From a virus (Duplodnaviria > Heunggongvirae > Uroviricota > Caudoviricetes), in IMG/VR virus record IMGVR_UViG_2695420718_000005, positions 1-19,638 of that record: a stretch of DNA of 19,638 nucleotides; one strand, written 5' to 3'. Position numbers and translations under genes: made by a program. Shown piece by piece: positions 1 through 19,365 of this stretch (its first letter is position 1; each line of letters opens with the position of its first letter). The notes beneath the pieces were generated by a model. The model saw only the letters and a program-made list of their open reading frames with translations. It made no database searches and was not told the DNA's origin.

Positions 1-89
1 CGATCTGTTGCCCTGGAAAGTTGATCTGAGCTCTCAGTAAATATCAATACGGTTCTGACGAGTCGCTTACAAACAAAAGGCTGGTTAAC

Positions 90-311
90 ATGAAAAAAAT
101 GGCAATTGTCGATAAAAAGGGTCTGGAGTACATTCCTAATATCGATCGTATGATCCGTGAGAAAGAATGTCGGGAGCTAACCACTCTTGCGAACAGCACA
201 CGCTGGAAGCTGGAGAAGGAAGGAAAATTTCCTAAGCGGATCAAGATTGGTTCCACTGCTGTTGCATATCGTCTTTCAGAAGTGCAGGCATGGATTAGGG
301 GAGAGTGGTAA
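90..311 (+). CDS. alpA: AlpA-family (prophage CP4-57-type) HTH transcriptional regulator
   Basis: 73-aa ORF; the stretch RELTTLANSTRWKLEKEGKFPKRIKIGSTAVAYRLSEVQAWI fits the AlpA/Phage_AlpA HTH pattern with a conserved Trp near the C-terminus; AAGG about 10 nt upstream of the ATG. An integrase would be expected upstream, outside the window. Confidence 0.8.
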   Translation: MKKMAIVDKKGLEYIPNIDRMIREKECRELTTLANSTRWKLEKEGKFPKRIKIGSTAVAYRLSEVQAWIRGEW

Positions 312-330
312 GAATTTAGACAGTGGATGT

Positions 331-357
331 AATCCTATGGGGTAAACCCATAGGATT
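331..357. terminator. Perfect 11-bp inverted repeat (aatcctatggg / cccataggatt, 5-nt loop) between convergent genes; possible bidirectional terminator
   Basis: Read directly: lies between the alpA stop (311) and the stop of the minus-strand 449-aa gene (363). No clear U-tract on either side, so intrinsic termination is uncertain. Confidence 0.35.
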
Positions 358-362
358 TGAAA

Positions 363-1712
363 TCACTTAAATTCAAATACGTGCGTAGTTGATGAGATTA
401 TATAATTAGGTGGTAAGTATTGAACTATTTCTCCATCTTCTTCAAAAATATGAATAACTCTTGGGAATAATTCAGGGTGTATAGGATTTAATGCCTTCGG
501 ATTATGAAACATGTATATTGCTGTACACCATGGTTCTTGATATGAAGGTGCATTGACAAGAGCAGTAAAAGGCATTGGGGTACAGCCTTCATCAGTTTTA
601 ATACCTCTAACGATGGATTTGACATTTTTTTGTTCAATCCCTGCCACTACTCCCATCCTATCAAATTTTGGGATGGTGGCATGTGTCGCAAGTAATATGG
701 CTGAGACATTCTCATTTTTATTAGAGCCGAAAAAATTAGATTGTATACTTCGATTTTCAAATAAATGTTGTTCAATTTTACTTCCAGAATCCATATCTAC
801 ACCATACAGATAGCTTTGTAGTGCTGGCATTGATATACTCATCGAAAATCTGCGTGAGTAATCGTGTAAAGCAATAATGAAAGGCTTTCCTTTTGTATGA
901 TCTAGTTCCCAATAGCATAATTTTAAGGGTTCAGGTTTATGCCTAACTTTCTTTAATAGAGTGCGGGCAAATTTGAATGGCATTTGTTCTTTTACATATC
1001 TCTGAAGATCTTCTACTGCCTCATGATCAAGTATCAATTTCTCGGTAGGTTCCTCTTGTTCTGCAACTGTGGCAGCTTCTACAGCAATATCAATGCCATT
1101 TTTTGAGATAATATAATCAGGTTGAGCATAATCTCTGCATATTACGAAATCCATTTCGTAGAAAACTGCGTTTAGATAAAGTTCGAATAAGCGAGAGTTA
1201 AATGAAGCACTCTGGAAATCTCTGATGAATATTCCATCAGGATCTTTACACCAATAAGCTAACTCTTGCATAACAATAAATGCAGGATAGTGTTTGGGTT
1301 CCTCAAGTAGCATTCTTAGATAAACGTTTTTTTTATGTTCTGGAACTTTGGCTAGGAATATTGAAAATGCCGACTCTGATTCGTCACCCTGTATAAAACA
1401 ACCGTTCTTGTGTAGTGATAATAGCTCTGGTATGGCTTTTTCCATATCAGTAATTAAATCATCTTTAGATTCACGGGATACAATTACTTTAATCGCTCTA
1501 AATTTTTTATCTAAATCCCTACCTAGAAATATAGCGTTGTAATCATTATCTATTTTACAAAAAACAATTGTTGCTAAGATCGTGACATCATCCTTTATAA
1601 ATTTGAACCAACAGATTTCCTCCGAAAAGGTTTTTACGTATGGTGTACGACCATAGAAAAATACATCAAATTGTTCTTTACTGATTTCTAGCATTTTGTG
1701 ACTTGTTGTCAT
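363..1712 (-). CDS. Hypothetical 449-aa protein, visibly AT-rich cargo gene; no family recognised
   Basis: Long uninterrupted minus-strand ORF, much more AT-rich than the flanking phage genes; 23 bp downstream of and co-oriented with the RHH gene. No Walker A or other motif I can name confidently; a weak PD-(D/E)xK-like pattern (FVICRD...PDYIIS...IDIAVEAAT) is only suggestive. Confidence 0.7.
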   Translation of the reverse strand: MTTSHKMLEISKEQFDVFFYGRTPYVKTFSEEICWFKFIKDDVTILATIVFCKIDNDYNAIFLGRDLDKKFRAIKVIVSRESKDDLITDMEKAIPELLSLHKNGCFIQGDESESAFSIFLAKVPEHKKNVYLRMLLEEPKHYPAFIVMQELAYWCKDPDGIFIRDFQSASFNSRLFELYLNAVFYEMDFVICRDYAQPDYIISKNGIDIAVEAATVAEQEEPTEKLILDHEAVEDLQRYVKEQMPFKFARTLLKKVRHKPEPLKLCYWELDHTKGKPFIIALHDYSRRFSMSISMPALQSYLYGVDMDSGSKIEQHLFENRSIQSNFFGSNKNENVSAILLATHATIPKFDRMGVVAGIEQKNVKSIVRGIKTDEGCTPMPFTALVNAPSYQEPWCTAIYMFHNPKALNPIHPELFPRVIHIFEEDGEIVQYLPPNYIISSTTHVFEFK

Positions 1713-1735
1713 AGAAGAATCCTTTATGCAAATTA

Positions 1736-1930
1736 TCAGCCTTTAGGTGTTATTCCTTGTTTTATTAGTTCGGCACGAGCCAGTTCTTTTAGCCAGTTAC
1801 CTAAGCTCATCCCTTCTTTGGCAGCGACATTAACCATTTGTTCTTTTAATTCTGGGTTAATACGGACTTGGAATGCTGGTGCTTTACCTGCACCTTTCGG
1901 TTGTTTATCACGTTGAATGATAGTTGACAT
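1736..1930 (-). CDS. Arc/MetJ-type ribbon-helix-helix DNA-binding protein (64 aa)
   Basis: PAFQVRINPELKEQMVNVAAKEGMSLGNWLKELARAEL resembles the Arc-repressor layout (N-terminal beta-strand then two helices); first gene of a two-gene minus-strand operon. Confidence 0.55.
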   Translation of the reverse strand: MSTIIQRDKQPKGAGKAPAFQVRINPELKEQMVNVAAKEGMSLGNWLKELARAELIKQGITPKG

Positions 1931-1952
1931 GTGTGTACCTATTGCTTAGTAT
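1924..1952 (+). promoter_or_regulatory. Candidate sigma70 promoter (TTGACA, 17-nt spacer, TAGTAT) reading rightward into the small-gene/primase operon
   Basis: ttgaca at 1924-1929, 17-nt spacer, tagtat at 1947-1952; overlaps the inverted repeat at 1931-1972. Confidence 0.4.
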
Positions 1953-1972
1953 GATTCTTGATAGGTACACAC
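1931..1972. promoter_or_regulatory. Perfect 12-bp inverted repeat (gtgtgtacctat ... ataggtacacac, 18-bp spacer); candidate operator
   Basis: Read directly; sits immediately 5' of the RHH gene start codon (minus strand) and overlaps the candidate rightward promoter, i.e. in the divergent control region. Confidence 0.45.
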
Positions 1973-2069
1973 CTTATCATGTTTTATTGCTATATAACAA
2001 CGCCCTGCAGTGCTCGCAACACATACAGGGCGTCTAACCACCAACGATAGCAACAGTATCGAGGTAGCT

Positions 2070-2273
2070 ATGAGAAATCATACCACACACCCGCAAGGGC
2101 GGGATTCGCACAACCTGAATAAATACATCTGGCGTTTTATCGCCCTGAGCACCGCACAACCACGCGTAATACACATCGAGGCCGCCAGCGAACAGGAAGC
2201 CCGCCAGCAATCCCCAACTGGCTACGTGATGATATTCGCCGCCCGTATTCGTCAGGAGGTGTGCCGTGCTTAA
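2070..2273 (+). CDS. Hypothetical small protein (67 aa from the internal ATG)
   Basis: ATG at 2070 preceded by GAGG; the longer ORF from 2010 lacks an RBS. Same strand and operon as the downstream coupled genes. Confidence 0.35.
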   Translation: MRNHTTHPQGRDSHNLNKYIWRFIALSTAQPRVIHIEAASEQEARQQSPTGYVMIFAARIRQEVCRA

Positions 2274-2451
2274 AACCTTCCGTGTATTTGCCCGAGCTGT
2301 TAACCCACTGGGCCACACAATTGGTATCACTCAGAACGTGAAGGCTGTTAATGTTCAGACGGCTATTGCTGCGGTGAGAAGCGAATCATCAGAATATGGC
2401 TTATCACAAGTCATTATTTCAGCAGTGTATGAATTAAAAGAGGTGCATTAA
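2266..2451 (+). CDS. Hypothetical small protein (61 aa)
   Basis: GTG start 6 nt after a strong AGGAGG RBS (2254-2259); stop overlaps the next start (ATGA at 2451). Confidence 0.45.
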   Translation: MLKTFRVFARAVNPLGHTIGITQNVKAVNVQTAIAAVRSESSEYGLSQVIISAVYELKEVH

Positions 2452-2642
2452 TGCAGGAAATCACATTACACGAAGCCGCTGAACGTGCGCACCAGACAGA
2501 AATTATTTGCCGCCTTCTTGAGGTATACCCGAACAAAATTACAGATGCTGATATATCCGCGCTGGCGAGCCTACTGGCGCGCCTTTCGGGAAGTGTCGCT
2601 AGTTTCCTGATTGAGGAAGAAAGTAAGCTGGTGGGGGATTAA
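2451..2642 (+). CDS. Hypothetical small protein (63 aa)
   Basis: Start overlaps the upstream stop; stop overlaps the next start; translationally coupled operon. Confidence 0.45.
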   Translation: MQEITLHEAAERAHQTEIICRLLEVYPNKITDADISALASLLARLSGSVASFLIEEESKLVGD

Positions 2643-2864
2643 ATGAATACAGAACGGGAAGTCTTTTTTAAATTGTTAGCATGTGCAGAAAGTTCATTAA
2701 CTTTAAATAATTCAGCAAAAGCAATATTAAATATGTGGCTTGATTGCATAAATGACAATGAAGATGCAAATATTGCTTATGGCCTGTTGTCACTTATTGA
2801 TGAATCAGCAGAAAAACTCAATGACGCAATAAATAGTGCCCTGCTATCAAATAAGTCGAGTTAA
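2643..2864 (+). CDS. Hypothetical small protein (73 aa), AT-rich
   Basis: ORF in the same coupled series. Confidence 0.4.
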   Translation: MNTEREVFFKLLACAESSLTLNNSAKAILNMWLDCINDNEDANIAYGLLSLIDESAEKLNDAINSALLSNKSS

Positions 2865-2881
2865 GTCGAGGAATAAATAAT

Positions 2882-3181
2882 ATGGAAATGAAAAATTCTG
2901 GCTTTATTGCCAGCGGCCCCGCTCGGCCTGAATTTATGAACGGCGATATTTACCGCGATAAATACGGCGGCACGGTAACGATTAAAGGCGTGGCAGAACG
3001 GCGCATCACTTACCGCCGTGAGGGGTATAGCTATGACTGCGTGATGCCTGTTTATCAGTTCCGGCGTGATTTTTCCCTGGTATATGCCGCACCCCGCAGT
3101 AAGCCCATCAGCAGGGAAAAAGCGCGGGGAAACATCCAGAAAATGAAAAGCATGATTAACGCATTCAGGGGCAAAAAATGA
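2882..3181 (+). CDS. Hypothetical protein (99 aa); stop overlaps the primase start
   Basis: ATG at 2882 preceded by gaggaataaataat; the stop overlaps the ATG of the 583-aa gene (ATGA at 3178-3181). Confidence 0.5.
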   Translation: MEMKNSGFIASGPARPEFMNGDIYRDKYGGTVTIKGVAERRITYRREGYSYDCVMPVYQFRRDFSLVYAAPRSKPISREKARGNIQKMKSMINAFRGKK

Positions 3182-4929
3182 AACTGGCACCGAACTTAAA
3201 AAAACAGCCACGCGACAGACTGACAGAGGTAATCATCTTTGCAGGTAGTGATGCGTGGAGCCATGCGAAAGAGTGGCGGGAATGGGCGGGTAAACATATT
3301 GCCGCCGACGATGTGCCGCCTGTCGTGCTGGCTGATGAGCAACTGAAAAATATCACCGATTACCGGATCATTGATGAAGATCGTCAGTGTGTGCGTGTTT
3401 ACCGCGCAGGACATATCACAGAGCACAGCATGACGCAGATTGTTACGTTACTGGCTGTGGCTGGAGTGAAGACCGTACACGAATACGCGGGGATTACTGA
3501 CACCAGCCCAGTGGATTTATCCGAGCAGTTGCCGCGACTCAAAGAGGAATGCGAGCGTGGGGAAAGTCTGGTGCTTAATCTTCCGACGAAGCAAAAGGCG
3601 CAACTTTCACAGATGGCAGACAGTGAACGTGCACAACTACTTGCCGATCGCTTTGATGGTGTGTGTGTTCATGCAGAAAGTGAAATCGTCCACGTATGGC
3701 GCGGCGGGGTATGGTGTCCGGTCAGCACAATGGAGCTGAGCCGCGAAATGGTGGCGATCTATTCAGAGCACAGGGCCACGTTCAGCAAACGTGTAATCAA
3801 TAACGCCGTGGAAGCGTTAAAAGTTATTGCCGACCCCATGGGGGAGCCGTCCGGTGATTTGCTACCGTTCACTAATGGTGTGCTTAACCTGAAAACGGGG
3901 GAATTTTCTCCGCACTCGCCGGAGCACTGGAGCACCACGCACAATGGCATTGAGTACACGCCACCAGTAGCAGGGGAAAACATCCGCGATAATGCGCCAA
4001 ATTTCCATAAATGGCTTGAACATGCTGCAAGAAAAGACCCGCGTAAGATGATGCGTATATGTGCCGCGTTATACATGATTATGGCGAACCGCTACGACTG
4101 GCAGATGTTCATTGAGGCCACCGGAGACGGGGGAAGCGGTAAGAGTACATTTACCCATATTGCCACCCTGCTTGCTGGCAAACAGAACACCGTAAGCGCG
4201 GAGATGACATCACTCGATGATGCAGGAGGGCGCGCGCAGGTTGTCGGGAGTCGTCTTATCGTCCTTGCCGATCAGCCGAAATATACGGGGGAAGGCACGG
4301 GCATCAAGAAAATCACGGGAGGCGATCCCGTTGAAATTAACCCGAAATATGAGAAGCGATTCACGACGATAATAAGGGCGGTGGTACTGGCAACCAATAA
4401 CGACCCGATGATCTTTACCGAACGGGCCGGAGGTGTGTCACGCCGTCGGGTGATTTTCCGGTTCGACAACATTGTAAGGGAGGACGAAAAAGACAAGGAA
4501 TTACCGGAAAAGATAGCGGCAGAAATCCCCGTAATTATCCGCCGCTTGCTGGCTAATTTTGCTGCCCCTGAAAAGGCACGGGCTTTATTACTGGAACAGC
4601 GTGACGGTGATGAAGCTCTGGCAATAAAGCAGCAAACGGATCCGGTTGTTGAGCTTTGCGCGGCGCTGGAGTTTCTGGAGGAAGCTCGTGGGCTAATGAT
4701 GGGCGGTGGTGGTGACACCGTGAAGTACACGACCAGAAACAGCCTTTACCGTGTCTATATGGCCTTCATGGCATACACAGGAAAGGGGAAATGTTTGAGC
4801 GTGAATGAGTTCGGAAAGGCTATGAGGTCAGCGGCGAAAGTTTACGGATATGAATATATTACGCGAAAAGTTAAGGGAGTCACGCAGACCAACGCAACGA
4901 CTACTGATGATTGCGATGCGTTTTTATAA
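3178..4929 (+). CDS. P4-family phage/plasmid primase C-terminal domain / D5-N-like SF3 helicase replication protein (583 aa)
   Basis: Walker A motif GDGGSGKST in the context typical of P4 alpha / PICI Pri-Rep C-terminal helicase domains; immediately followed by an iteron array. Confidence 0.85.
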   Translation: MKLAPNLKKQPRDRLTEVIIFAGSDAWSHAKEWREWAGKHIAADDVPPVVLADEQLKNITDYRIIDEDRQCVRVYRAGHITEHSMTQIVTLLAVAGVKTVHEYAGITDTSPVDLSEQLPRLKEECERGESLVLNLPTKQKAQLSQMADSERAQLLADRFDGVCVHAESEIVHVWRGGVWCPVSTMELSREMVAIYSEHRATFSKRVINNAVEALKVIADPMGEPSGDLLPFTNGVLNLKTGEFSPHSPEHWSTTHNGIEYTPPVAGENIRDNAPNFHKWLEHAARKDPRKMMRICAALYMIMANRYDWQMFIEATGDGGSGKSTFTHIATLLAGKQNTVSAEMTSLDDAGGRAQVVGSRLIVLADQPKYTGEGTGIKKITGGDPVEINPKYEKRFTTIIRAVVLATNNDPMIFTERAGGVSRRRVIFRFDNIVREDEKDKELPEKIAAEIPVIIRRLLANFAAPEKARALLLEQRDGDEALAIKQQTDPVVELCAALEFLEEARGLMMGGGGDTVKYTTRNSLYRVYMAFMAYTGKGKCLSVNEFGKAMRSAAKVYGYEYITRKVKGVTQTNATTTDDCDAFL

Positions 4930-4942
4930 AAAATGGCAATGG

Positions 4943-5171
4943 TTATCTACCTTGTCTACCTGACTGAAAGAAAATACTTTTATTTCAATGTATTAATGCA
5001 GGTAGATAACTATTTTTCACTGTCTACCTGTTATCTACCTTATCTACCCATTTTTGTAGACAGGTAAGGAGACGGGTAGAGATGAGGTAGACAGCTATTT
5101 GGGGCTGTCTACCTCCCTGAAACCCGCGCCATTACTGGCCTGATAACTAATCAGGTAGACAAGGTAGACAA
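4943..5171. repeat. Iteron array (about 11 copies of GGTAGAYA / TRTCTACC in both orientations) with AT-rich flanks; candidate replication origin
   Basis: Read directly: ttatctacc-ttgtctacc (4943-4960), ggtagataa (5001-5009), tgtctacc / ttatctacc / ttatctacc (5021-5048), gtagacagg (5056-5064), ggtagaca (5087-5094), tgtctacc (5106-5113), ggtagacaa-ggtagacaa (5154-5171); AT-rich stretch at 4967-4998. Confidence 0.75.
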
Positions 5172-5218
5172 GGTGGTGGTGCACAAAAAACTTTTTAAAC
5201 GAGGGGGTAAAAATAAAA

Positions 5219-5476
5219 ATGCACACATCAGGAAAACTGAACAAACATATAAAGCCACATTACCGCGCCCTTGATATGGCTGAACACTGGCTAAGGGTGG
5301 CGATTAAGGCAATAGACCGCAACGCCGGGGAAGGATACGCGAAAGCACATCCCGAACTGATAAGCGCATTCATGACAACGGCGGCTGCAAACTTTGCCAC
5401 GCTGACCGAACGGGAGATTGCTGAAGCGGAGGAAGTGACAACAATCAATATTAAGTCCGGAGAGCAGGCAGCATGA
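5219..5476 (+). CDS. Hypothetical protein (85 aa)
   Basis: ORF directly downstream of the iterons; its stop overlaps the ssb start (ATGA at 5473). Confidence 0.5.
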   Translation: MHTSGKLNKHIKPHYRALDMAEHWLRVAIKAIDRNAGEGYAKAHPELISAFMTTAAANFATLTEREIAEAEEVTTINIKSGEQAA

Positions 5477-5922
5477 CGGCGCAAATATCAGTTTACGGGC
5501 GGTTGGTGGACGACCCGCAGACAAAACAGACCAGCAAGGGCACCCCCATGACGCTGGCGCGTATGGCGGTATCACTGCCCTGCAGTCAGTCGGATGACGG
5601 TCTGGCGACGTTGTGGTTATCTGTCCTGGCGTTTGGCAGACAAGCCGACGCGCTGGCAAAGCATCACAAAGGCGAACTCCTGAGCGTGGCGGGTAACATG
5701 CAGATGAGCCAGTGGACTGGACAGAACGGCGAAACGCGGCAGGGCTGGCAGGTTATCGCAGACAGCGTAATCAGTGCGCGATCGGTGCGACCGGGCGGCA
5801 AAAAAGGCCAACAGGGGCAGGCTACTGACGCACTGAACAGAGCAAAACAACAGGCAGATCAGCAAGGAAGCCAGCCACCAGAGGGAGATAATGAGCAATG
5901 GGGAGATGATATCCCGTTTTAA
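5473..5922 (+). CDS. ssb: Single-stranded DNA-binding protein (149 aa)
   Basis: N-terminal OB-fold-like region, Gln/Gly-rich linker and the diagnostic acidic C-terminal tail ending DDIPF (E. coli SSB ends DDDIPF). Confidence 0.85.
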   Translation: MTAQISVYGRLVDDPQTKQTSKGTPMTLARMAVSLPCSQSDDGLATLWLSVLAFGRQADALAKHHKGELLSVAGNMQMSQWTGQNGETRQGWQVIADSVISARSVRPGGKKGQQGQATDALNRAKQQADQQGSQPPEGDNEQWGDDIPF

Positions 5923-5940
5923 ATATTGCCAATAAAAAAA

Positions 5941-5964
5941 GCCGGAAAAAATAAATTTTCCGGC
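5941..5964. other. Palindrome gccggaaaa-aataaa-ttttccggc between ssb and the capsid-like gene
   Basis: Perfect 9-bp arms read directly; could be a terminator-like structure or a protein-binding site. Confidence 0.3.
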
Positions 5965-6138
5965 ATGCTACATAAATCCCGACCAAAGGGAGTGAAGATA
6001 TTAACACTAATTGTCCGCACTGAAGTTGTCACCCCAAAACTTTATACAACATTGCACTCGGTTGCATGTGTTCGCATGACAAATATCGGTGATAGCATAT
6101 ATCCACAATTATTTTTAATGAATGCAAAGAGGATGCGT

Positions 6139-7179
6139 ATGGTTGATTTATATTCGCCTACCCAGCTTGTACAGGTGGTTAATGCTGTAGATGTACAAAA
6201 ACAACTAAATGCGTTGTTTACCAGTTTGTTTTTTACTCGCTCGGTAATGTTTGGATCGCGCGATATTATTCTTGATACAATCGACGATCCAAATATCCCA
6301 ATTGCAGCGTTTTGTTCTCCTATGGTGGGTAGTAAAGTTTCACGTGACGAAGGGTACGAATCAAAAACAATTCGTCCAGGCTATATGAAGCCGAAAAGCA
6401 GCATTGATCCAAATAAGTTAGCTGTGCGCCCTGCTGGTGTATCACCTGAGCAATACAATGCTTTTGGGGCGCGTAATATTAAAGTTAAACAGGCGATTGT
6501 AAATCAAGCTAAAGCTATTCGTGCACGTATTGAATGGCTTGCCGTTCAGGCAATCACAACGGGGAAAAATATCATTGAGGGCGATGGTATTGAACGTTAT
6601 GAGCTGGACTGGAATATTAAACCACAAAATATCATCACTCAGTCTGGCGGTACTGAGTGGTCAGGTAAGGATAAAGAAACTTTTGATCCAAATGATGATA
6701 TTGAGAGCTACGCAGAATTTAGTGAGGGCGTCACTAATATCATCATTATGGGCGGTAATGTATGGAAGAAATACCGTTCATTCAGAGCGATAAAAGAGGC
6801 TCTGGATACCCGTCGTGGTTCTAATTCCGAACTGGAAACGGCCCTTAAAGACCTTGGTGATTCGGTGAGTTTTAAAGGATATATGGGCGATGTTGCGATT
6901 GTTGTTTACAGCGGGCGTTATACCGACGAGGACGGAACTGAAAAACATTTCCTTGATCCTGATTTGATGGTGCTTGGCAATACGGCTCTTCAGGGGATTG
7001 TCGCCTATGGCGGTATTCAGGATCCGGAGCTAATCCGAATGGGGCTGACTAAAGCCGAACTTGCACCGAAAAACTATATTGTGCCTGGTGATCCGGCTAT
7101 TGAATATGTGCAGACACATTCAGCACCACAGCCAATACCGGCCCGCATCAATCGTTTTGTTACCGTTCGCATTGGCTAA
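6139..7179 (+). CDS. Major capsid protein, diverged homologue of lambda gpE (347 aa from the RBS-preceded ATG)
   Basis: Segments PGYMKPK, ITQSGGTEWSGKDKETFDPNDDIESYA and LDTRRGSNSELETALKDLGDSVSFKGYMGDVAIVVYSG align with remembered lambda E; AAAGAGGA RBS before the ATG at 6139. The longer ORF from 5926 has no homology in its extension. Confidence 0.8.
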   Translation: MVDLYSPTQLVQVVNAVDVQKQLNALFTSLFFTRSVMFGSRDIILDTIDDPNIPIAAFCSPMVGSKVSRDEGYESKTIRPGYMKPKSSIDPNKLAVRPAGVSPEQYNAFGARNIKVKQAIVNQAKAIRARIEWLAVQAITTGKNIIEGDGIERYELDWNIKPQNIITQSGGTEWSGKDKETFDPNDDIESYAEFSEGVTNIIIMGGNVWKKYRSFRAIKEALDTRRGSNSELETALKDLGDSVSFKGYMGDVAIVVYSGRYTDEDGTEKHFLDPDLMVLGNTALQGIVAYGGIQDPELIRMGLTKAELAPKNYIVPGDPAIEYVQTHSAPQPIPARINRFVTVRIG

Positions 7180-7188
7180 GGGGGAGCA

Positions 7189-7530
7189 ATGGCTACTCAT
7201 TACACTGAACTCATGGCTGGCACTGAAGCACTGGTGACTACGCTGGGGATATTTTCAGCTAATAAAGGGGTAATTCCTGCATTTACGCCACTGATGCAGG
7301 AAGATGCAACAGGTGCACTGGTGGTATGGGATGGTTCGAGCGTAGGTAAAGCGGTTTATGTTTCCGCTGTACAAATCGACACCGCGAAAAAAACACAGGC
7401 TCAGGTCTATAAGACAGGTGTCTTAAATGTTGATGCTCTGAACTGGCCTGAGTCTGTAAAAGAACTGTCAGTAAAGATTGCAGCGTTTGTTGGCTCAGGT
7501 ATTTCTGTTCAGCCGCTGGCTCGTGTGTAA
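7189..7530 (+). CDS. Head decoration protein, lambda gpD-like (113 aa)
   Basis: PAFTPLMQEDATGALVVWDG, YKTGVLNVDALNWPE and AAFVGSGISV align with remembered lambda D (TPLMLDTSSRKLVAWDG, YKSGTFRYEDVLWPE, TAFAGTAISI); GGGGGAG RBS. Confidence 0.75.
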   Translation: MATHYTELMAGTEALVTTLGIFSANKGVIPAFTPLMQEDATGALVVWDGSSVGKAVYVSAVQIDTAKKTQAQVYKTGVLNVDALNWPESVKELSVKIAAFVGSGISVQPLARV

Positions 7531-7541
7531 AGGGGGATACA

Positions 7542-7925
7542 ATGCAAAATGATTACAATGACCTTAAGCCAATTGCCGAAATGATGTACCCGAATCCAGC
7601 TGTAGAGGAATTAAAAGCTATCGCTGACAAAATGTGTTTAAGCGAGCGCCTTGTTGATATGAATCAGGTGATGGAAATTACAACCCTGAGTCGGCGTACA
7701 CTGCTAAACCTTGAGGCTAGTGGAGAGTTCCCGGAGCGTGTGCAGGTTACGGAAGGGCGTAAGGCCTGGTATTTAAGTGAAGTGATCGACTGGATAAATA
7801 ATATTCCTCGCGCTTCTGAATATTGCCGCGTACCTGTCCCAAAAAAGCCAGATGCGGCGCTATGCCTCAAGATTGAGCGTGTACGCCGCAATGCACGGGA
7901 TGGTCGCTATAAGCTGATTGGTTGA
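7542..7925 (+). CDS. AlpA-like HTH DNA-binding protein with N-terminal extension (127 aa)
   Basis: MEITTLSRRTLLNLEASGEFPERVQV...WYLSEVIDWI fits the AlpA-type HTH pattern; AGGGGGA RBS; located immediately upstream of the cos site. Confidence 0.6.
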   Translation: MQNDYNDLKPIAEMMYPNPAVEELKAIADKMCLSERLVDMNQVMEITTLSRRTLLNLEASGEFPERVQVTEGRKAWYLSEVIDWINNIPRASEYCRVPVPKKPDAALCLKIERVRRNARDGRYKLIG

Positions 7926-7933
7926 TGAAATTA

Positions 7934-7962
7934 GGGCCCGCTCTGGCTGGCGGGTCCTTTCC
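7934..7962 (+). terminator. Candidate intrinsic terminator (gggcccgc-tctggctg-gcgggtcc followed by tttcc)
   Basis: GC-rich imperfect hairpin followed by a short T-run, just after the 127-aa gene stop. Confidence 0.4.
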
Positions 7963-7981
7963 GGCGATCTGACAGGCTACG

Positions 7982-7993
7982 GGGCGTCAGGCG
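7982..7993. other. cosN-equivalent (gggcgtcaggcg), divergent from lambda cosN GGGCGGCGACCT
   Basis: Position and flanks (acg before, cgcgg-attttcgc after) correspond to the lambda cohesive-end region as I recall it; 5 of 12 positions differ. Confidence 0.55.
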
Positions 7994-7998
7994 CGCGG

Positions 7999-8170
7999 AT
8001 TTTCGCTATTTATGAAAATTTTCCGGTTTAAGGCGTTTCCGTTCTTCTTCGTCGTAACTTAATGTTTTTATTTAAAATACCCCCTGAAAAGAAAGGAAAC
8101 GACAGGTGCTGAAAGCGAGCTTTTTGGCCTCTGTCGTTTCCTTTCTCTGTTTTTGTCCGTGGAATGAACA
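7999..8170 (+). promoter_or_regulatory. Lambda-type cosB with Nu1-binding repeats R3, R2, R1 (CGTTTCC / GGAAACG)
   Basis: attttcgctatttatgaaaattttccggtttaaggcgtttccgttcttcttcg ... aaaggaaacgacaggtg ... ctgtcgtttcctttctc matches my recollection of the lambda left end nearly base for base; three CGTTTCC-type repeats read directly. Confidence 0.75.
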
Positions 8171-8722
8171 ATGGAAGTCAACAAAAAGCAGCTGGCTGAC
8201 ATTTTCGGTGCGAGTATCCGTACCATTCAGAACTGGCAGGAACAGGGAATGCCCGTTCTGCGAGGCGGTGGCAAGGGTAATGAGGTGCTTTATGACTCTG
8301 CCGCCGTTATAAGATGGTATGCCGAAAGGGATGCTGAAATTGAGAACGAAAAGCTGCGCCGGGAAGTTGAAGAACTGCGGCAGGCCAGCGAGACAGATCT
8401 CCAGCCAGGGACTATTGAGTACGAACGCCATCGACTTACGCGTGCGCAGGCCGACGCACAGGAACTGAAGAATGCCAGCGAAACAGGTGAGGTAATTGAC
8501 ACTGCATTTGCGACTTATGCCTTGTCGAAATTAACTGGGGAAGTTGGAGCAATCATTGATAGTCTTCCACTTGCGATCTGTCGACAGTTTCCTGGCATGG
8601 AAAAACGGTATCAGGACTTCATTAAGATGGAGGTCAGTAAAGCATTTATTCGAGCTTACCAGATCTCAGATAACATTCCAGATATGGCTGAAAGGTATAT
8701 CAAGGATAATCAGCGAAGTTAA
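8171..8722 (+). CDS. Nu1: Terminase small subunit Nu1 (183 aa); N-terminal DNA-binding half lambda-like, C-terminal half diverged
   Basis: MEVNKKQLADIFGASIRTIQNWQEQGMPVLRGGGKGNEVLYDSAAV... is essentially lambda Nu1; the C-terminal ~70 aa are homologous but diverged. No gpA gene follows. Confidence 0.9.
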   Translation: MEVNKKQLADIFGASIRTIQNWQEQGMPVLRGGGKGNEVLYDSAAVIRWYAERDAEIENEKLRREVEELRQASETDLQPGTIEYERHRLTRAQADAQELKNASETGEVIDTAFATYALSKLTGEVGAIIDSLPLAICRQFPGMEKRYQDFIKMEVSKAFIRAYQISDNIPDMAERYIKDNQRS

Positions 8723-8778
8723 AACAAATGAAACCATAGGTAGGAAGAGTGCTTAGGTGGTTCTTTGTTGCTTAAAAG

Positions 8779-8810
8779 TCGCCAGTAAAACTGGCGATAG
8801 ATTTTATTTG
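8779..8810. terminator. Hairpin tcgccag-taaaa-ctggcga followed by tagattttatttg; candidate bidirectional terminator between Nu1 and the convergent 301-aa gene
   Basis: Perfect 7-bp stem and T-rich tract read directly; lies between convergent gene ends. Confidence 0.45.
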
Positions 8811-8828
8811 TCAAAAGCATTTGACCTT

Positions 8829-9734
8829 TTAAGGTAGTGGTACTATGGATATTTTTCTGTCGTTCCCAAATGAACTTTTAAATAATTTCGCTCTTGGATA
8901 CATTTTAACTAGTGATGCGACTTCATCGAACTCGCTGGCATCAAAAAGAGGACCAAGTATTACAGATTTTAACTCAAAAGGGTGAAATTTTAAGTCGCTA
9001 TATTGACCAGTGCTATTTGGCCTAGCGTAGGTTGAAATTCTCCACTCTCTTTCATATGCCCATTCTTCTGTTTTTATGAATATTATCTCATTATTGATAT
9101 ATTCAATTGACTTATTGTCTGGCATGAAAAGCAACTCGGCCATCCCTTCAGCAGTGTGAGTTAGAGGCATTTCATCTGTGTATTTCATAGGTTTGGCTAT
9201 TAACCAAGCGCTATCCAGAAAGTCTACACAATCAAATTCGATAACTATACCTTTATATTTATCGGCATAGTGATTCCACATAGGAGTGATTATAGGGCTC
9301 TCAGATAAACACAAAATCCTTCTGTTATTAAGCATTCCTCGCCAGACATCTTTCATTTCTTGTATTGCCGCAGGAGCGCCAATCCCAACTGGTGGAATGT
9401 TTACCATTTCTTGAAATCTTTCAATTAATCCTGCGGGTATGCCTAAAGGAAATGACTTTTGGAAATCACTTAGCATTGTTCTAATTCTAGGGTTTAAATT
9501 TTGTATGTCTTCTCTGGGGGTAATCAACTCCGCTATTAACTTGCGGGCTAAAGCTTTGCCAATATTAATTTCGTTAATACCAGGCATAACTTCTCTTGGA
9601 ACATCAAAAGGGTCATTAAATAGGACCGGAGAACTCCATCTAAGGCTGCATGAATCAAGAACAATCTTCGCGGTATTCAACGACATATACTTATAAAATG
9701 TTGAGCGTTCATGCATTCTGTTGGGTGAGCGCAT
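8829..9734 (-). CDS. Hypothetical 301-aa protein, AT-rich moron; motif pattern reminiscent of the DUF2971 family (unverified recollection)
   Basis: Long minus-strand ORF, strongly AT-rich relative to the flanking lambda genes; motifs FYKYMSL, FNDPFD, RILCLSESPIITPMWNHYADKYKGIVIEFD. It occupies the position where lambda A through Nu3, D and E-5' would be. Confidence 0.7.
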   Translation of the reverse strand: MRSPNRMHERSTFYKYMSLNTAKIVLDSCSLRWSSPVLFNDPFDVPREVMPGINEINIGKALARKLIAELITPREDIQNLNPRIRTMLSDFQKSFPLGIPAGLIERFQEMVNIPPVGIGAPAAIQEMKDVWRGMLNNRRILCLSESPIITPMWNHYADKYKGIVIEFDCVDFLDSAWLIAKPMKYTDEMPLTHTAEGMAELLFMPDNKSIEYINNEIIFIKTEEWAYEREWRISTYARPNSTGQYSDLKFHPFELKSVILGPLFDASEFDEVASLVKMYPRAKLFKSSFGNDRKISIVPLP

Positions 9735-9870
9735 AGATTCCTCTTGTTAAATGAGTGATGGTTTTCATCCATGTATTGCACGTTGTATTGCATTCAAGGA
9801 TTTTCCATTTCAATTCTATAGCTAAAACGTAATCAAATCATTCACATCCTTTCATATTTGACTCATGTAG

Positions 9871-10659
9871 CCGAAGCATGAGGTGAATCCGCAGATGACC
9901 CTGCGTCGCCTGCCGGATGAAGATCCGCAGAATCTGGCGGACCCGGCTTACCGCCGCCGTCGCATCATCATGCAGAACATGCGAGACGAAGAGCTGGCCA
10001 TTGCTCAGGTCGAAGAGATGCAGGCAGTTTCTGCTGTGCTTAAGGGCAAATACACCATGACCGGTGAAGCCTTCGATCCGGTTGAGGTGGATATGGGCCG
10101 CAGTGCGGCGAACAACATCACACAGTCCGGTGGTACGGAGTGGAGCAAGCGTGACAAGTCCACGTATGACCCGACCGACGATATCGAAGCCTATGCGCTG
10201 AACGCCAGCGGAGTGGTGAATATCATCGTGTTTGATCCGAAAGGCTGGGCGCTGTTCCGTTCCTTCAAAGCCGTCAAGGAGAAGCTGGATACCCGTCGCG
10301 GCTCTAATTCCGAGCTGGAGACAGCGGTAAAAGACCTGGGCGAAGCGGTGTCCTATAAGGGGATGTATGGCGATACGGCGATCGTCGTGTATTCCGGACA
10401 GTACGTGGAAAACGACGTCAAAAAGAACTTCCTTCCGGACAACACGATGGTGCTGGGGAACTCTCAGGCACGCGGTCTGCGCACCTATGGCTGCATTCAG
10501 GATGCGGACGCACAGCGCGAAGGTATTAACGCCTCTGCCCGCTACCCGAAAAACTGGGTGACCACCGGCGATCCGGCGCGTGAGTTCACCATGATTCAGT
10601 CAGCACCGCTGATGCTGCTGGCTGACCCTGATGCGTTCGTGTCCGTACAACTGGCGTAA
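9871..10659 (+). pseudogene. E: 5'-truncated major capsid gene E (lambda gpE residues ~90 to end)
   Basis: Translation PKHEVNPQMTLRRLPDEDPQNLADPAYRRRRIIMQNMRDEEL... matches lambda E almost residue for residue; homology stops abruptly near 9866-9870, where an in-frame TAG (9868-9870) is present; no proper N-terminus or RBS. Confidence 0.8.
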
Positions 10660-10700
10660 TCATGGCCCTTCGGGGCCATTTTCTCTCTGTGGAGGAGTCT

Positions 10701-11096
10701 ATGACGAAAGATGAACTGATTGCCCGTCTTCAGGTGCTGGGTGAGCAACTGAACCGTGATGTCAGCCTGACGGGGACGAAAGAAGAACTGGTGCTCCGTG
10801 TGGCAGAGCTGGAAGAGGAGCTTGATGACACGGATGACGCTGCCGGTCAGGACACATCTGTCAGCCCGGAAAATGCGCTGACCGGACATGAAAATGAGGT
10901 TGTATCAGCGCAGCCGGATACCGTGACTGATACGGCTGATCTGGTCACGGTTGTGGCACTGGTGACGCTGCATACTGATGCACTTCACGCCACGCGGGAT
11001 GAGGCTGTGGCATTTGTGCTGCCGGGAACGGCGTTCCGTGTCTCTGCCGGTGTGTCAGCTGAAATGACAGAGCGCGGCCTGGCCAGAATGCAATAA
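10701..11096 (+). CDS. FI: DNA-packaging protein FI (132 aa)
   Basis: MTKDELIARL...ERGLARMQ matches lambda FI; GGAGGA RBS before the ATG at 10701. The ORF-track start at 10662 is an upstream extension. Confidence 0.9.
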   Translation: MTKDELIARLQVLGEQLNRDVSLTGTKEELVLRVAELEEELDDTDDAAGQDTSVSPENALTGHENEVVSAQPDTVTDTADLVTVVALVTLHTDALHATRDEAVAFVLPGTAFRVSAGVSAEMTERGLARMQ

Positions 11097-11107
11097 CGGG
11101 AGGCGCT

Positions 11108-11461
11108 GTGGCTGATTTCGATAACCTGTTCGATGCTGCCATTGCCCGCGCCGATGAAACGATACGCGGGTACATGGGAACGTCAGCCACCATGACATCC
11201 GGTGAGCAGTCCGGTGCTGTGATACGTGGTGTTTTTGATGACCCTGAAAATATCAGCTATGCCGGACAGGGCGTGCGCGTTGAAGGCTCCAGCCCGTCCC
11301 TGTTTGTCCGGACTGATGATGTGCGGCAGCTGCGGCGCGGCGACACGCTGACCATCGGTGAGGAAAACTTCTGGATAGACCGGATTTCGCCGGATGATGG
11401 CGGAAGCTGTCATCTCTGGCTTGGGCGGGGCGTACCGCCTGCCGTTAACCGTCGCCGCTGA
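11108..11461 (+). CDS. FII: Head-tail joining protein FII (117 aa)
   Basis: MADFDNLFDAAIARADETIRGYMGTSAT... matches lambda FII; GTG start after GGGAGG. Confidence 0.9.
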   Translation: MADFDNLFDAAIARADETIRGYMGTSATMTSGEQSGAVIRGVFDDPENISYAGQGVRVEGSSPSLFVRTDDVRQLRRGDTLTIGEENFWIDRISPDDGGSCHLWLGRGVPPAVNRRR

Positions 11462-11472
11462 AAGGGGGATGT

Positions 11473-12051
11473 ATGGCCATAAAAGGTCTTGAGCAGGCCG
11501 TTGAAAACCTCAGTCGTATCAGCAGAGCGGCGGTGCCCGGTGCCGCCGCAATGGCCATTAACCGCGTTGCTTCATCCGCGATATCGCAGTCGGCGTCACA
11601 GGTTGCCCGTGAGACAAAGGTACGCCGGAAACTGGTAAAGGAAAGGGCCAGGCTGAAAAGGGCCACGGTCAAAAATCCGCAGGCCAGAATCAAGGTTAAC
11701 CGGGGGGATTTGCCCGTAATAAAGCTGGGTAACGCGCGGATTGTCCTGTCCCGACGCAGGCGTCGTAAAAAGGGGCAGCGTTCAGCCCTGAAAGGTGGCG
11801 GCAGCGTGCTTGTGGTGGGAAACCGTCGTATTCCCGGCGCGTTTATTCAGCAACTGAAACATGGCCGCTGGCATGTCATGCAGCGTGTGGCCGGGAAAAA
11901 CCGTTACCCCATTGATGTGGTGAAAATCCCGATGGCGGTGCCGCTGACCACGGCGTTTAAACAGAATATTGAGCGGATACGGCGTGAGCGTCTTCCGAAA
12001 GAGCTGGGCTATGCGCTGCAGCATCAACTGAGGATGGTAATAAAGCGATGA
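11473..12051 (+). CDS. Z: Tail terminator/completion protein Z (192 aa)
   Basis: MAIKGLEQAVENLSRIS... matches lambda Z; AAGGGGGA RBS. Confidence 0.9.
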   Translation: MAIKGLEQAVENLSRISRAAVPGAAAMAINRVASSAISQSASQVARETKVRRKLVKERARLKRATVKNPQARIKVNRGDLPVIKLGNARIVLSRRRRRKKGQRSALKGGGSVLVVGNRRIPGAFIQQLKHGRWHVMQRVAGKNRYPIDVVKIPMAVPLTTAFKQNIERIRRERLPKELGYALQHQLRMVIKR

Positions 12052-12443
12052 AACATACTGAACTCCGTGCAGCCGTACTGGATGCACTGGAGAAGCATGA
12101 CACCGGGGCGACGCTTTTTGATGGTCGCCCCGCTGTTTTTGATGAGGAAGATTTTCCGGCAATTGCCGTTTATCTCACCGGCGCTGAATACACGGGCGAA
12201 GAGCTGGACAGCGATACCTGGCAGGCGGAGCTGCATATTGAAGTTTTCCTGCCTGCTCAGGTGCCGGATTCAGAGCTGGATGCGTGGATGGAGTCCCGGA
12301 TTTATCCGGTGATGAGCGATATCCCGGCACTGTCAGATTTGATCACCAGTATGGTGGCCAGTGGCTATGACTACCGGCGCGACGATGATGCGGGCCTGTG
12401 GAGTTCAGCCGATCTGACTTATGTCATTACCTATGAAATGTGA
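12048..12443 (+). CDS. U: Tail tube terminator protein U (131 aa)
   Basis: [22 protein letters not shown]... matches lambda U; start overlaps the Z stop. Confidence 0.9.
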
Positions 12444-12450
12444 GGACGCT

Positions 12451-13191
12451 ATGCCTGTACCAAATCCTACAATGCCGGTGAAAGGTGCCGGGACCACCCT
12501 GTGGGTTTATAAGGGGAGCGGTGACCCTTATGCGAACCCGCTTTCAGACGTTGACTGGTCGCGTCTGGCAAAAGTTAAAGACCTGACGCCCGGCGAACTG
12601 ACCGCTGAGTCCTATGACGACAGCTATCTCGATGATAAAGATGCAGACTGGACTGCGACCGGGCAGGGGCAGAAATCTGCCGGAGATACCAGCTTCACGC
12701 TGGCGTGGATGCCCGGAGAGCAGGGGCAGCAGGCGCTGCTGGCGTGGTTTAATGAAGGTGATACCCGTGCCTATAAAATCCGCTTCCCGAACGGCACGGT
12801 CGATGTGTTCCGTGGCTGGGTCAGCAGTATCGGTAAGGCGGTGACGGCGAAGGAAGTGATTACCCGCACGGTGAAGGTCACCAATGTGGGACGTCCGTCG
12901 ATGGCAGAAGATCGCAGCACGGTAACAGCGGCAACCGGCATGACCGTGACGCCTGCCAGCACTTCGGTGGTGAAAGGGCAGAGCACCACGCTGACCGTGG
13001 CATTCCAGCCGGAAGGCGCAACCGACAAGAGCTTCCGTGCGGTGTCAGCGGATAAAACAAAAGCCACCGTGTCGGTCAGTGGTATGACCATCACCGTGAA
13101 TGGCGTTGCTGCAGGCAAGGTCAACATTCCGATTGTATCCGGTAATGGTGAGTTTGCTGCGGTTGCAGAAATCACCGTCACCGCCAGTTAA
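12451..13191 (+). CDS. V: Major tail tube protein V (246 aa)
   Basis: [22 protein letters not shown]... matches lambda V including the C-terminal Ig-like region; GAGGA RBS before the ATG at 12451. The ORF-track start at 12421 is rejected. Confidence 0.9.
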
Positions 13192-13206
13192 TCCGGAGAG
13201 TCAGAG

Positions 13207-13629
13207 ATGTTCCTGAAAACCGAATCATTTGAACATAACGGTGTGACCGTCACGCTTTCTGAACTGTCAGCCCTGCAGCGTATTGAGCATCTCGCCCTGA
13301 TGAAACGGCAGGCAGAACAGGCGGAGTCAGACAGCAACCGGAAGTTTACTGTGGAAGACGCCATCAGAACCGGCGCGTTTCTGGTGGCGATGTCCCTGTG
13401 GCATAACCATCCGCAGAAGACAAAGCAGCCTTCCATGAATGAAGCCGTTAAACAGATTGAGCAGGAAGTGCTTACCACCTGGCCCACAGAGGCAATTTCT
13501 CATGCTGAAAACGTGGTGTACCGGCTGTCTGGTATGTATGAGTTTGTGGTGAATAATGCCCCTGAACAGGCAGAGGACGCCGGGCCCGCAGAGCCTGTTT
13601 CTGCGGGAAAGTGTTCGACGGTGAGCTGA
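13207..13629 (+). CDS. G: Tail assembly chaperone G (140 aa)
   Basis: MFLKTESFEHNGVTVTLSELSALQRIEHL... matches lambda G. Confidence 0.9.
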   Translation: MFLKTESFEHNGVTVTLSELSALQRIEHLALMKRQAEQAESDSNRKFTVEDAIRTGAFLVAMSLWHNHPQKTKQPSMNEAVKQIEQEVLTTWPTEAISHAENVVYRLSGMYEFVVNNAPEQAEDAGPAEPVSAGKCSTVS

Positions 13630-14045
13630 GTTTTGCCCTGAAACTGGCGCGTGAGATGGGGCGACCCGACTGGCGTGCCATGCTTGCCGGGATGTCATCC
13701 ACGGAGTATGCCGACTGGCACCGCTTTTACAGTACCCATTATTTTCATGATGTTCTGCTGGATATGCACTTTTCCGGGCTGACGTACACCGTGCTCAGCC
13801 TGTTTTTCAGCGATCCGGATATGCATCCGCTGGATTTCAGTCTGCTGAACCGGCGCGAGGCTGACGAAGAGCCTGAAGATGATGTGCTGATGCAGAAAGC
13901 GGCAGGGCTTGCCGGAGGTGTCCGCTTTGGCCCGGACGGGAATGAAGTTATCCCCGCTTCCCCGGATGTGGCGGACATGACGGAGGATGACGTAATGCTG
14001 ATGACAGTATCAGAAGGGATCGCAGGAGGAGTCCGGTATGGCTGA
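13207..14045 (+). CDS. G-T: G-T tail assembly chaperone fusion produced by -1 frameshift (T portion 13611..14045)
   Basis: The -1 frame ORF after the slippery site encodes ...FDGELSFALKLAREMGRPDWRAMLAGMSSTEYADWHRFY..., matching the lambda T region; no independent RBS or start. Confidence 0.8.
13605..13611 (+). promoter_or_regulatory. Programmed -1 ribosomal frameshift slippery heptamer G GGA AAG (G to G-T)
   Basis: GGGAAAG read in the G frame near the 3' end of G; the -1 frame continues as the T ORF to 14045. Confidence 0.8.
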
Positions 14046-18336: not shown

Positions 18337-18662
18337 AAACCTTCCGCTGGAAAGTGAAACCCGGTATGGATGTGGCTTCGGCCCCTTCTGTAAGAAAGGT
18401 GCGCTTTGGTGATGGTTATTTCCAGCGAGCGCCTGCCGGGCTGAATGCCAACCTGAAAACGTACAGCGTGACGCTTTCTGTCCCCCGTGAGGAGGCCACG
18501 GTACTGGAGTCGTTTCTGGCTGAGCACGGGGGCTGGAAAGCCTTTCTGTGGACGCCGCCTTATGAGTGGCGGCAGATAAAGGTGACCTGCGCAAAATGGT
18601 CGTCGCGGGTCAGTATGCTGCGTGTTGAGTTCAGCGCAGAGTTTGAACAGGTGGTTAACTGA
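18333..18662 (+). CDS. M: Minor tail protein M (109 aa)
   Basis: MKTFRWKVKPGMDVAS... matches lambda M; start overlaps the end of H. Confidence 0.9.
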   Translation: MKTFRWKVKPGMDVASAPSVRKVRFGDGYFQRAPAGLNANLKTYSVTLSVPREEATVLESFLAEHGGWKAFLWTPPYEWRQIKVTCAKWSSRVSMLRVEFSAEFEQVVN

Positions 18663-19360
18663 TGCAGGATATCCGGCAGGAAACACTGAATGAATGCACC
18701 CGTGCGGAGCAGTCGGCCAGCGTGGTGCTCTGGGAAATCGACCTGACAGAGGTCGGTGGAGAACGTTATTTTTTCTGTAATCAGCAGAACGAAAAAGGTG
18801 AGCCGGTCACCTGGCAGGGGCGACAGTATCAGCCGTATCCCATTCAGGGGAGTGGTTTTGAACTGAATGGCAAAGGCACCAGTACGCGCCCCACGCTGGC
18901 AGTCTCTAACCTGTACGGCATGGTCACCGGGATGGCGGAAGATCTGCAGAGTCTGGTCGGCGGAACGGTGGTCCGGCGTAAGGTTTATGCCCGTTTTCTG
19001 GATGCAGTGAACTTCGTCAACGGAAACAGCGACGCCGATCCGGAGCAGGAGGTGATCAGCCGCTGGCGCATCGAGCAGTGCAGCGAACTGAGCGCGGTGA
19101 GTGCCTCCTTTGTACTGTCCACGCCGACTGAAACGGATGGCGCTGTTTTTCCGGGTCGTATCATGCTGGCCAACACCTGCACCTGGACCTATCGCGGCGA
19201 TGAGTGCGGTTATCACGGTCCGGCTGTCGCGGATGAATATGACCAGCCGACGTCCGATATCACGAAGGATAAATGCAGCAAATGCCTGAGTGGCTGTAAG
19301 TTCCGCAATAATGTCGGCAACTTTGGCGGCTTCCTTTCCATTAACAAACTTTCGCAGTAA
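18662..19360 (+). CDS. L: Minor tail protein L (232 aa)
   Basis: MQDIRQETLNECTRAEQSASVVLWEIDL... matches lambda L; TGATG overlap with the M stop. Confidence 0.9.
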   Translation: MQDIRQETLNECTRAEQSASVVLWEIDLTEVGGERYFFCNQQNEKGEPVTWQGRQYQPYPIQGSGFELNGKGTSTRPTLAVSNLYGMVTGMAEDLQSLVGGTVVRRKVYARFLDAVNFVNGNSDADPEQEVISRWRIEQCSELSAVSASFVLSTPTETDGAVFPGRIMLANTCTWTYRGDECGYHGPAVADEYDQPTSDITKDKCSKCLSGCKFRNNVGNFGGFLSINKLSQ

Positions 19361-19365
19361 ATCCC

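Follow-up and report, generated by a model that had tools for sequence, protein, structure and literature searches.

The 19,638-nt stretch of DNA that we analyzed (hereafter, the window; positions 1 to 19,638 of IMG/VR record IMGVR_UViG_2695420718_000005) contains a gene that differs in composition and orientation from the lambda-like genes around it. What is this gene, which element carries it, and what might its product do? An earlier note, drawn up from the DNA letters alone, described it as a horizontally acquired moron of a lambda-like prophage, located where head genes had been deleted, and proposed that it might be an accessory or defense gene. We examined the gene, its protein, and its surroundings computationally. 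The features in and beside the gene are the following:

8829..9734, minus strand: DUF2971 / PDC-S31 gene, 301 aa, ADP-ribosyltransferase (ART) fold predicted
9740..9745, minus strand: strong Shine-Dalgarno AAGAGG as read in the sequence, 5 nt before the ATG at 9734
9813..9818, minus strand: candidate -10 hexamer TAGAAT from a lax scan, 78 nt before the ATG, with a weak -35 (ATGATT)
8778..8798, no strand assigned: GC-rich hairpin of 9 pairs with T-runs on both sides, between the DUF2971 gene and terS
9773..9792, no strand assigned: two GTATTGCA repeats as read in the sequence, within the part of the attR arm that separates the attachment core from the DUF2971 start codon

Gene, start codon, and flanking signals

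The 301-aa open reading frame on the minus strand is present as described, and all the motifs quoted for it can be placed in the protein: FYKYMSL at residues 13-19, FNDPFD at 39-44, RILCLS at 139-144, MWNHYAD at 152-158, and IEFD at 165-168. The GC content of the gene is 37.7% (GC3 33.1%), compared with 57.6% in the lambda late genes (9883-19638) and 47.6% in the remainder of the element that carries it (1713-8722), and its strand is opposite to that of every neighboring gene. Both the compositional contrast and the opposite orientation pointed out in the earlier note were therefore borne out. Judging from sequence comparisons, the reading frame is a genuine gene under purifying selection, because the protein has more than 470 homologues, the majority of them full length, and because dN/dS is low (0.135 against the Enterobacter orthologue and 0.149 against an orthologue of 62% identity).

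RefSeq annotates a shorter protein on identical DNA. WP_001117802.1 has 252 aa and starts at M50 (L001 21330-22088; L002 14694-15452, equivalent to window positions 8829-9587), and this model omits 49 N-terminal residues. Residues 1-49 are conserved among homologues, including the invariant motifs W33-S34-S35-P36 and N40-D41-P42. We favored the 301-aa start and rejected M50 because a Shine-Dalgarno sequence precedes M1 and because the N-terminus is conserved. The RefSeq start of WP_001117802.1 is almost certainly too short, and the misannotation has likely spread across genomes. Clones based on the 252-aa model would probably be inactive, as they lack some of the most conserved motifs of the protein.

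Upstream of the gene, the lax scan returned the hexamer listed above, while a stricter consensus promoter scan of 9735-9880 found none. The promoter must lie within the attR arm, where bound recombination proteins might influence expression of the gene. The GTATTGCA octamer repeated in this arm is also present in the attL arm (L001 11940-11965), and its copies are probably arm-binding sites for integrase, excisionase, or AlpA. Downstream, the flanking terminator hairpin that had been noted previously was found with its 9 pairs and T-run; it was called as a plus-strand terminator for terS, and its placement suggests that it would end the convergent DUF2971 transcript as well.

The carrier is a satellite inserted in gene E

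The window covers only part of the element that carries the gene. The features of this element and of the gene that it interrupts are the following:

1..9878, plus strand: right-hand 9.9 kb of a helper-embedded PICI (HE-PICI) satellite; the window starts at the int 3' end
90-311: alpA-like gene of the satellite
363..1712, minus strand: PD-T7-1 defense gene, 449 aa, 34% GC, in the int-proximal cargo slot
between PD-T7-1 and the primase gene: DUF4222 gene of the satellite
3178-4929: primase gene of the satellite
5473-5922: SSB gene of the satellite
6139-7179: E-like capsid gene of the satellite
7189-7530: D-like decoration gene of the satellite
7542-7925: second AlpA gene of the satellite, followed by a cos-like region, terS, and the DUF2971 gene
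8171..8722, plus strand: satellite terS, Phage_Nu1 family (Pfam E 3.6e-84)
9869..9878, no strand assigned: attR core AGCCGAAGCA, identical to the attL core; it marks the right end of the satellite and falls within codons 79-82 of helper E
9879..10659, plus strand: 3' portion of the helper major capsid gene E, not a deletion product

The whole arrangement of positions 7500-11000 was present in 32 of 5,426 complete E. coli genomes. There, the helper prophage retains Nu1, A, W, B, C, D, and the first 82 codons of E, and an integrase gene follows. The order after the integrase is alpA, an Icd-like gene, DUF4222, primase, SSB, E-like capsid, D-like decoration, AlpA, Nu1-like terS, DUF2971, and the rest of E. 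The 10-bp core AGCCGAAGCA occurs at both junctions and bounds an element of 10,571 bp (10.57 kb). We noticed this core on inspecting the two junctions and then confirmed it with a script; a repeat search with a 10-nt seed had missed it. When the two fragments of E are joined at the core, which begins at codon 79, they form an intact E of 341 codons, identical at 339 of 342 positions to the E of a lambda-like phage. The reading frame that starts at 9883 (GTG) within E is a mechanical call only. DUF2971 closes the gene order of the satellite, with 134 bp between it and the attR core.

These data bear directly on the claim of a head-gene deletion. According to that explanation, a defective lambda prophage lost genes A through part of E and gained a moron at the junction. 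It fits the window taken alone, which shows a Nu1-like gene, an AT-rich gene, and then the 3' part of E; the deletion was inferred earlier because the window starts inside the satellite, at the int 3' end, and shows terS followed by half of E. However, the complete genomes keep the supposedly lost genes upstream of the element, removal of the element between its direct repeats restores E exactly, the layout recurs in all 32 genomes with the full arrangement, and Tommasini, Mageeney & Williams 2023 (PMC10111431) list this insertion as a type, HE-PICI '11capE' at site E:Phage_cap_E:80, with 201 instances. We reject a deletion junction as extremely improbable. The site is an insertion, and the gene is acquired cargo, as the earlier note held; its owner is a satellite, in which it occupies the attR-proximal end, and not the lambda-like prophage.

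[quoted passage not shown] For the HE-PICI prototype, excision and helper-dependent mobilization upon induction have been demonstrated (PMC10111431).

Two further observations concern the capsid region of the satellite. The satellite has its own genes for an E-like major capsid protein (Phage_cap_E, E 2e-41) and a D-like decoration protein (together 6139-7530), while the E gene of its helper is interrupted, and this capsid has diverged at the stretch that matches the att site (GYMKPKSS versus GYVKPKHE), which may protect the satellite from targeting itself. The same capsid-decoration-AlpA-terS backbone also occurs in a satellite of another genome (L020, NZ_CP061101.1 690601-701477), where a DUF927 replication protein replaces the primase and the element ends beside tRNA-Ile upstream of mug-rpoD rather than in E. 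This element may correspond to the tRNA-associated relatives named in PMC10111431.

Variable cargo slots at both ends of the satellite

We compared satellites that share the capsid-decoration-AlpA backbone. The DUF2971 gene was found in 33 of 394 E. coli genomes with this backbone (~8%), always at ≥99.7% identity. Sister satellites match the window up to approximately 8020-8160 and then again from approximately 9770-9850. Between these points, on the same inverted strand, the attR-side slot of the sister satellites holds an AbiJ-like/Abi_C gene, an Mrr_cat nuclease gene, or a DUF3892 gene. The slot genes are located as follows:

L019 7722-8483, minus strand: attR-side slot gene of a sister satellite
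L017 7333-8205, minus strand: attR-side slot gene of a sister satellite
L018 7930-8217, minus strand: attR-side slot gene of a sister satellite

The int-side slot is also variable. Here, it contains the reading frame at 363-1712, which has no Pfam family and matches PD-T7-1, a validated E. coli defense gene (PMC9519451), over its full length (PADLOC E 1e-153); in other satellites, it contains a second, distant DUF2971 gene or a TIR-domain gene (L002 6268-7089, plus strand; L019 1-147). Several of the slot genes have no PADLOC match and could be defense candidates. As annotated from these matches, PD-T7-1 and DUF2971 are unrelated, independent cargo genes of one satellite, situated at its int end and its att end, respectively, and their presence at opposite ends bears on the question of who gains from satellite-borne immunity. 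PMC11364771 cites Fillol-Salom et al. 2022 for the finding that PICIs have immune systems located at the 5' or the 3' end.

Protein family, predicted fold, and conserved residues

The assignment to DUF2971, which the earlier note had suggested from motifs, held up in profile searches. Pfam PF11185 (DUF2971) matches residues 152-233 over all 89 model positions, scoring 40 bits where the cut-off is 22 (E 1e-9), and PADLOC model PDLC04990, for PDC-S31, matches residues 9-289 (E 2.5e-32), as do four sister PDC-S31 models. The protein also matches phrog_1762 in PHROGs, a family of unknown function, and a search of NCBIfam found no family. The profile of DUF2971 matches more than 21,000 clusters at 50% identity. 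The accompanying statement that DUF2971 has no established function is outdated: Aristaios, a 316-aa DUF2971 protein encoded on the Lactococcus plasmid pUCCL641_199, has been shown experimentally to protect against phages as a single-gene abortive infection system, halting phage transcription and the production of structural proteins (Grafakou et al. 2024, PMC11381338), members of the family are predicted ADP-ribosyltransferases (PMC12522546), and PADLOC includes the family as PDC-S31.

We modeled the protein with AlphaFold2 from an alignment of 114 sequences (pLDDT 95.6, pTM 0.87). The model contains the split beta-sheet of the ART fold, and we assign the protein to this fold on the basis of the model. 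Foldseek found no match at E ≤ 0.001 in the PDB or BFVD, and a profile search of PDB sequences returned spurious helical matches only, none of them credible.

The pattern of conservation agrees with the published description of the family, in which DUF2971 is a modified H-Y-E ART, related to DarT and AbiGi, with a weak motif I, a strictly conserved Tyr in motif II, and ExE in motif III (PMC12522546). Y156, E228, and E230 are invariant across 114 close homologues. We also aligned the protein with seven members of DUF2971 that share 21-27% identity with it, encoded on plasmids of Vibrio, Klebsiella, and Pandoraea, in a P2-like phage of Pseudomonas, in a plasmid-like phage of E. coli, and by the second DUF2971 gene of a sister satellite. 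The functional residues that were invariant family-wide were N40, D41, W153, Y156, G162, Y185, K221, E228, E230, and R232. The motif II Tyr (Y156) and motif III (E228-x-E230) are thus retained in distant members, in agreement with the published logo. In the ART superfamily, the NAD-binding and catalytic motifs are His or Arg (I), Tyr or Ser-x-Ser (II), and Glu or ExE (III); candidates for motif I in this protein are Y16, R32, which is not invariant, and N40-D41. The most variable part of the protein is a four-helix insertion at 55-137, which is short or absent in distant members.

The protein could have a role other than defense, as a Tpt1-like 2'-phosphotransferase, an end-modifying repair enzyme, a dead ART-fold binder, or a secreted effector, as has been proposed for some Legionella DUF2971 proteins. 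The invariant ExE and Tyr point to an active transferase, however, and rare, AT-rich mobile cargo in a slot shared with Abi and nuclease genes is a poor fit to housekeeping repair. We regard a non-defense enzyme or pseudo-enzyme as very unlikely.

Neighborhoods of homologues

Homologues at 41-62% identity are located in unrelated small variable islets with no conserved neighbor. Genes found beside them include AbiV, a HipA_C-domain gene, a Gp49/HTH pair, a CbtA toxin gene, integrase remnants, and a P2-type Ogr, and no macrodomain gene adjoined any homologue examined. We scanned 27 neighboring proteins from sister satellites and homologue loci with PADLOC and obtained clear matches to AbiJ, AbiV, and AbiEi only, along with two weak PDC candidates. 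The neighborhood survey that the earlier note had proposed as a check therefore gives a modest argument for enrichment near defense genes, because just 3 of the 27 neighbors are clear defense matches. The satellite cargo slot is a stronger positional argument than defense-island enrichment.

DUF2971 genes also occur in true phages. A distant DUF2971 gene lies between virion-morphogenesis and baseplate genes in a P2-like Pseudomonas phage (L024 2746-3510), and another lies beside KacT and RelE/ParE toxin genes in the plasmid-like E. coli phage Cyrano (L025 2677-3480).

Several of these neighbors raise the possibility of an addiction toxin, that is, a selfish ART that penalizes loss of the satellite-prophage composite, is countered by an unrecognized antitoxin (an RNA or a small peptide), and plays no real part in defense. 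The predicted fold is shared with toxins, including DarT and Rhs or effector ARTs, and homologues are often near CbtA, YjhX, a HipA_C-domain gene, or a Gp49/HTH pair, or near KacT and RelE/ParE on the plasmid-like prophage. Against this, there is no conserved adjacent open reading frame in any context and no credible small one in the flanks here, and a search of the whole window with Rfam at gathering thresholds found neither an immunity RNA of the C4/isrK type nor any antitoxin RNA family. Purifying selection moreover acts on the 300-aa architecture, which is retained in 674 clusters (E ≤ 1e-30) whose contexts differ widely. An addiction toxin is, in our assessment, quite unlikely.

A hybrid terS and probable exchange of the cargo module

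The terS gene next to the cargo slot is of mixed origin. Positions 7951-8508, which comprise the cos-like DNA and the first 112 terS codons, are 94.8% identical by blastn to the cos-nohD (Nu1) region of the helper (L001 5400-5957). This similarity ends inside terS, and the 3' half of the gene comes from a different lineage, such that a helper-like cos-binding end is joined to a foreign C-terminal end. In lambda, it is the C-terminal part of Nu1 that makes contact with the large terminase. A single block made up of the terS 3' half, DUF2971, and the attR arm (8444-9998) recurs, at 86.9% nucleotide identity, in a helper-embedded satellite of Enterobacter sichuanensis (L004 8737-10292). Within E. 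coli, the terS 3' half is restricted to the same 32 genomes as DUF2971. Cargo exchange seems, from these alignments, to proceed by recombination within terS.

The close association with terS also suggests a rival reading, a factor for satellite interference or takeover, which would modify the transcription or packaging machinery of the helper or host at induction, with the satellite packaged instead. Such a factor would have parallels in other proteins with which satellites manipulate their helpers, or in the ADP-ribosyltransferases that phage T4 uses on host RNA polymerase. The gene adjoins the packaging genes of the satellite (cos-like DNA, terS, capsid, and decoration), it is without exception co-inherited with one terS 3' half, the two together form the module shared with the Enterobacter satellite, and the DUF2971 precedent, Aristaios, acts on transcription. 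Nevertheless, DUF2971 is confined to ~8% of the satellites that have this backbone, and elsewhere the slot is filled by Abi or nuclease genes unrelated to it; the gene runs antisense to the late operon, with a terminator in between; and homologues at 45-62% identity reside in chromosomal islets without a satellite or terS nearby. We therefore judge an interference factor unlikely.

Proposed mechanism

Overall, the best reading of the gene is that it encodes a stand-alone, antitoxin-free, NAD-dependent ART-fold abortive-infection enzyme carried as attR-side cargo of the satellite, and we consider this reading probable. We prefer it because of the Aristaios precedent, the variable slot, the tendency of PICIs to carry immune genes at their ends, and the solo organization of the gene. 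The defense role proposed in the earlier note is accordingly the best-supported reading in our analysis, and its support comes from precedent and from the cargo slot. Homology to a characterized metabolic or structural protein, which the earlier note had named as grounds for refutation, did not turn up in the searches.

Under a stand-alone defense enzyme, a signal in the attR arm would drive the gene independently of the late operon and antisense to it, and the product would be held inactive until infection by a competing phage activates it. The enzyme would then use NAD+, with Y156 stacking the nicotinamide and E228-x-E230 serving as catalytic residues, to attach ADP-ribose to a nucleic acid or to part of the transcription machinery. 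Phage gene expression would stop and the infection would be aborted, protecting the lysogen, the helper prophage, and the satellite. A nucleic-acid target is favored because the top structural neighbors are Tpt1, DarT, and scabin, and a target in the transcription apparatus is favored because of the Aristaios phenotype; any specific target is less likely than the defense ART itself.

A bolder proposal combines several of these elements. The protein might be an antitoxin-free ART acting on nucleic acid in the manner of Tpt1 or DarT, with the insertion at 55-137 as a phage sensor and the co-inheritance with terS reflecting a coupling to packaging, through which the satellite shuts down transcription of a competitor or, at a suitable moment, of its helper. 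We think this combination rather unlikely. If true, it would represent a new class of enzymatic target and a new layer of conflict between satellite and helper.

Comparison with known systems

Among characterized proteins, Aristaios is the counterpart from the same family. Both are encoded by single genes on mobile carriers, are of similar size (301 versus 316 aa), belong to Pfam PF11185, and have a predicted ART fold; the likeness is one of family, size, and predicted fold. A tblastn search of plasmids placed no Lactococcus record among the 40 matches listed. The two differ in that their hosts belong to different phyla, the carrier is a phage satellite in one case and a plasmid in the other, and abortive infection has been demonstrated for Aristaios only. 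Aristaios is the one member tested in a very large family. The E. coli member, with a near-perfect structural model, clear candidate catalytic residues Y156/E228/E230, and a natural genetic setting, is tractable with E. coli phage collections, and with it the question of what antitoxin-free ARTs modify and how they are kept silent.

The match to PDC-S31 is nearly full length with PDLC04990, and the gene stands alone without a conserved partner, as in PDC-S31, which is itself a computational candidate and not a validated system; the name PDC-S31 did not appear in the literature searched. DarT, the ssDNA thymidine ADP-ribosyltransferase toxin of DarTG, is among the closest known systems. We rejected membership in DarTG: the neighbors are terS and attR, no DarG macrodomain adjoins the gene, and no PADLOC DarT model matched. 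With Tpt1/KptA RNA 2'-phosphotransferase, no sequence similarity was detected, and the rare mobile cargo gene described here has a very different context. The gene was also rejected as a classical prophage moron, as the unit lies inside a satellite and not in the phage genome proper and has a terminator but a weak promoter candidate.

The carrier resembles 11capE in its integrase, alpA, and primase genes, which are co-oriented with the interrupted late gene, in its insertion at E codons 79-82, and in its four-zone layout, with capsid, decoration, terS, and cos captured from helper-like phages. PMC10111431, in the parts consulted, covers the integration, Bro, replication, and late zones and does not mention defense cargo, and its text does not contain the term 'DUF2971'; the defense reading of both end slots is added by the present analysis.

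Hotspots in P4-like satellites were reportedly described by Rousset and colleagues in 2022. The satellite studied here is like the PICI and P4-like cases in having variable end slots with single-gene or small defense systems, and unlike them in being embedded in its helper prophage. The type of carrier (2023), the ART prediction for the family (2025), and a defense role, by way of the PADLOC candidate and Aristaios (2024), were already known. What is new is the placement of an E. coli DUF2971 subfamily as 3'-slot cargo of helper-embedded satellites beside PD-T7-1, together with the family-wide set of invariant residues and the corrected start codon.
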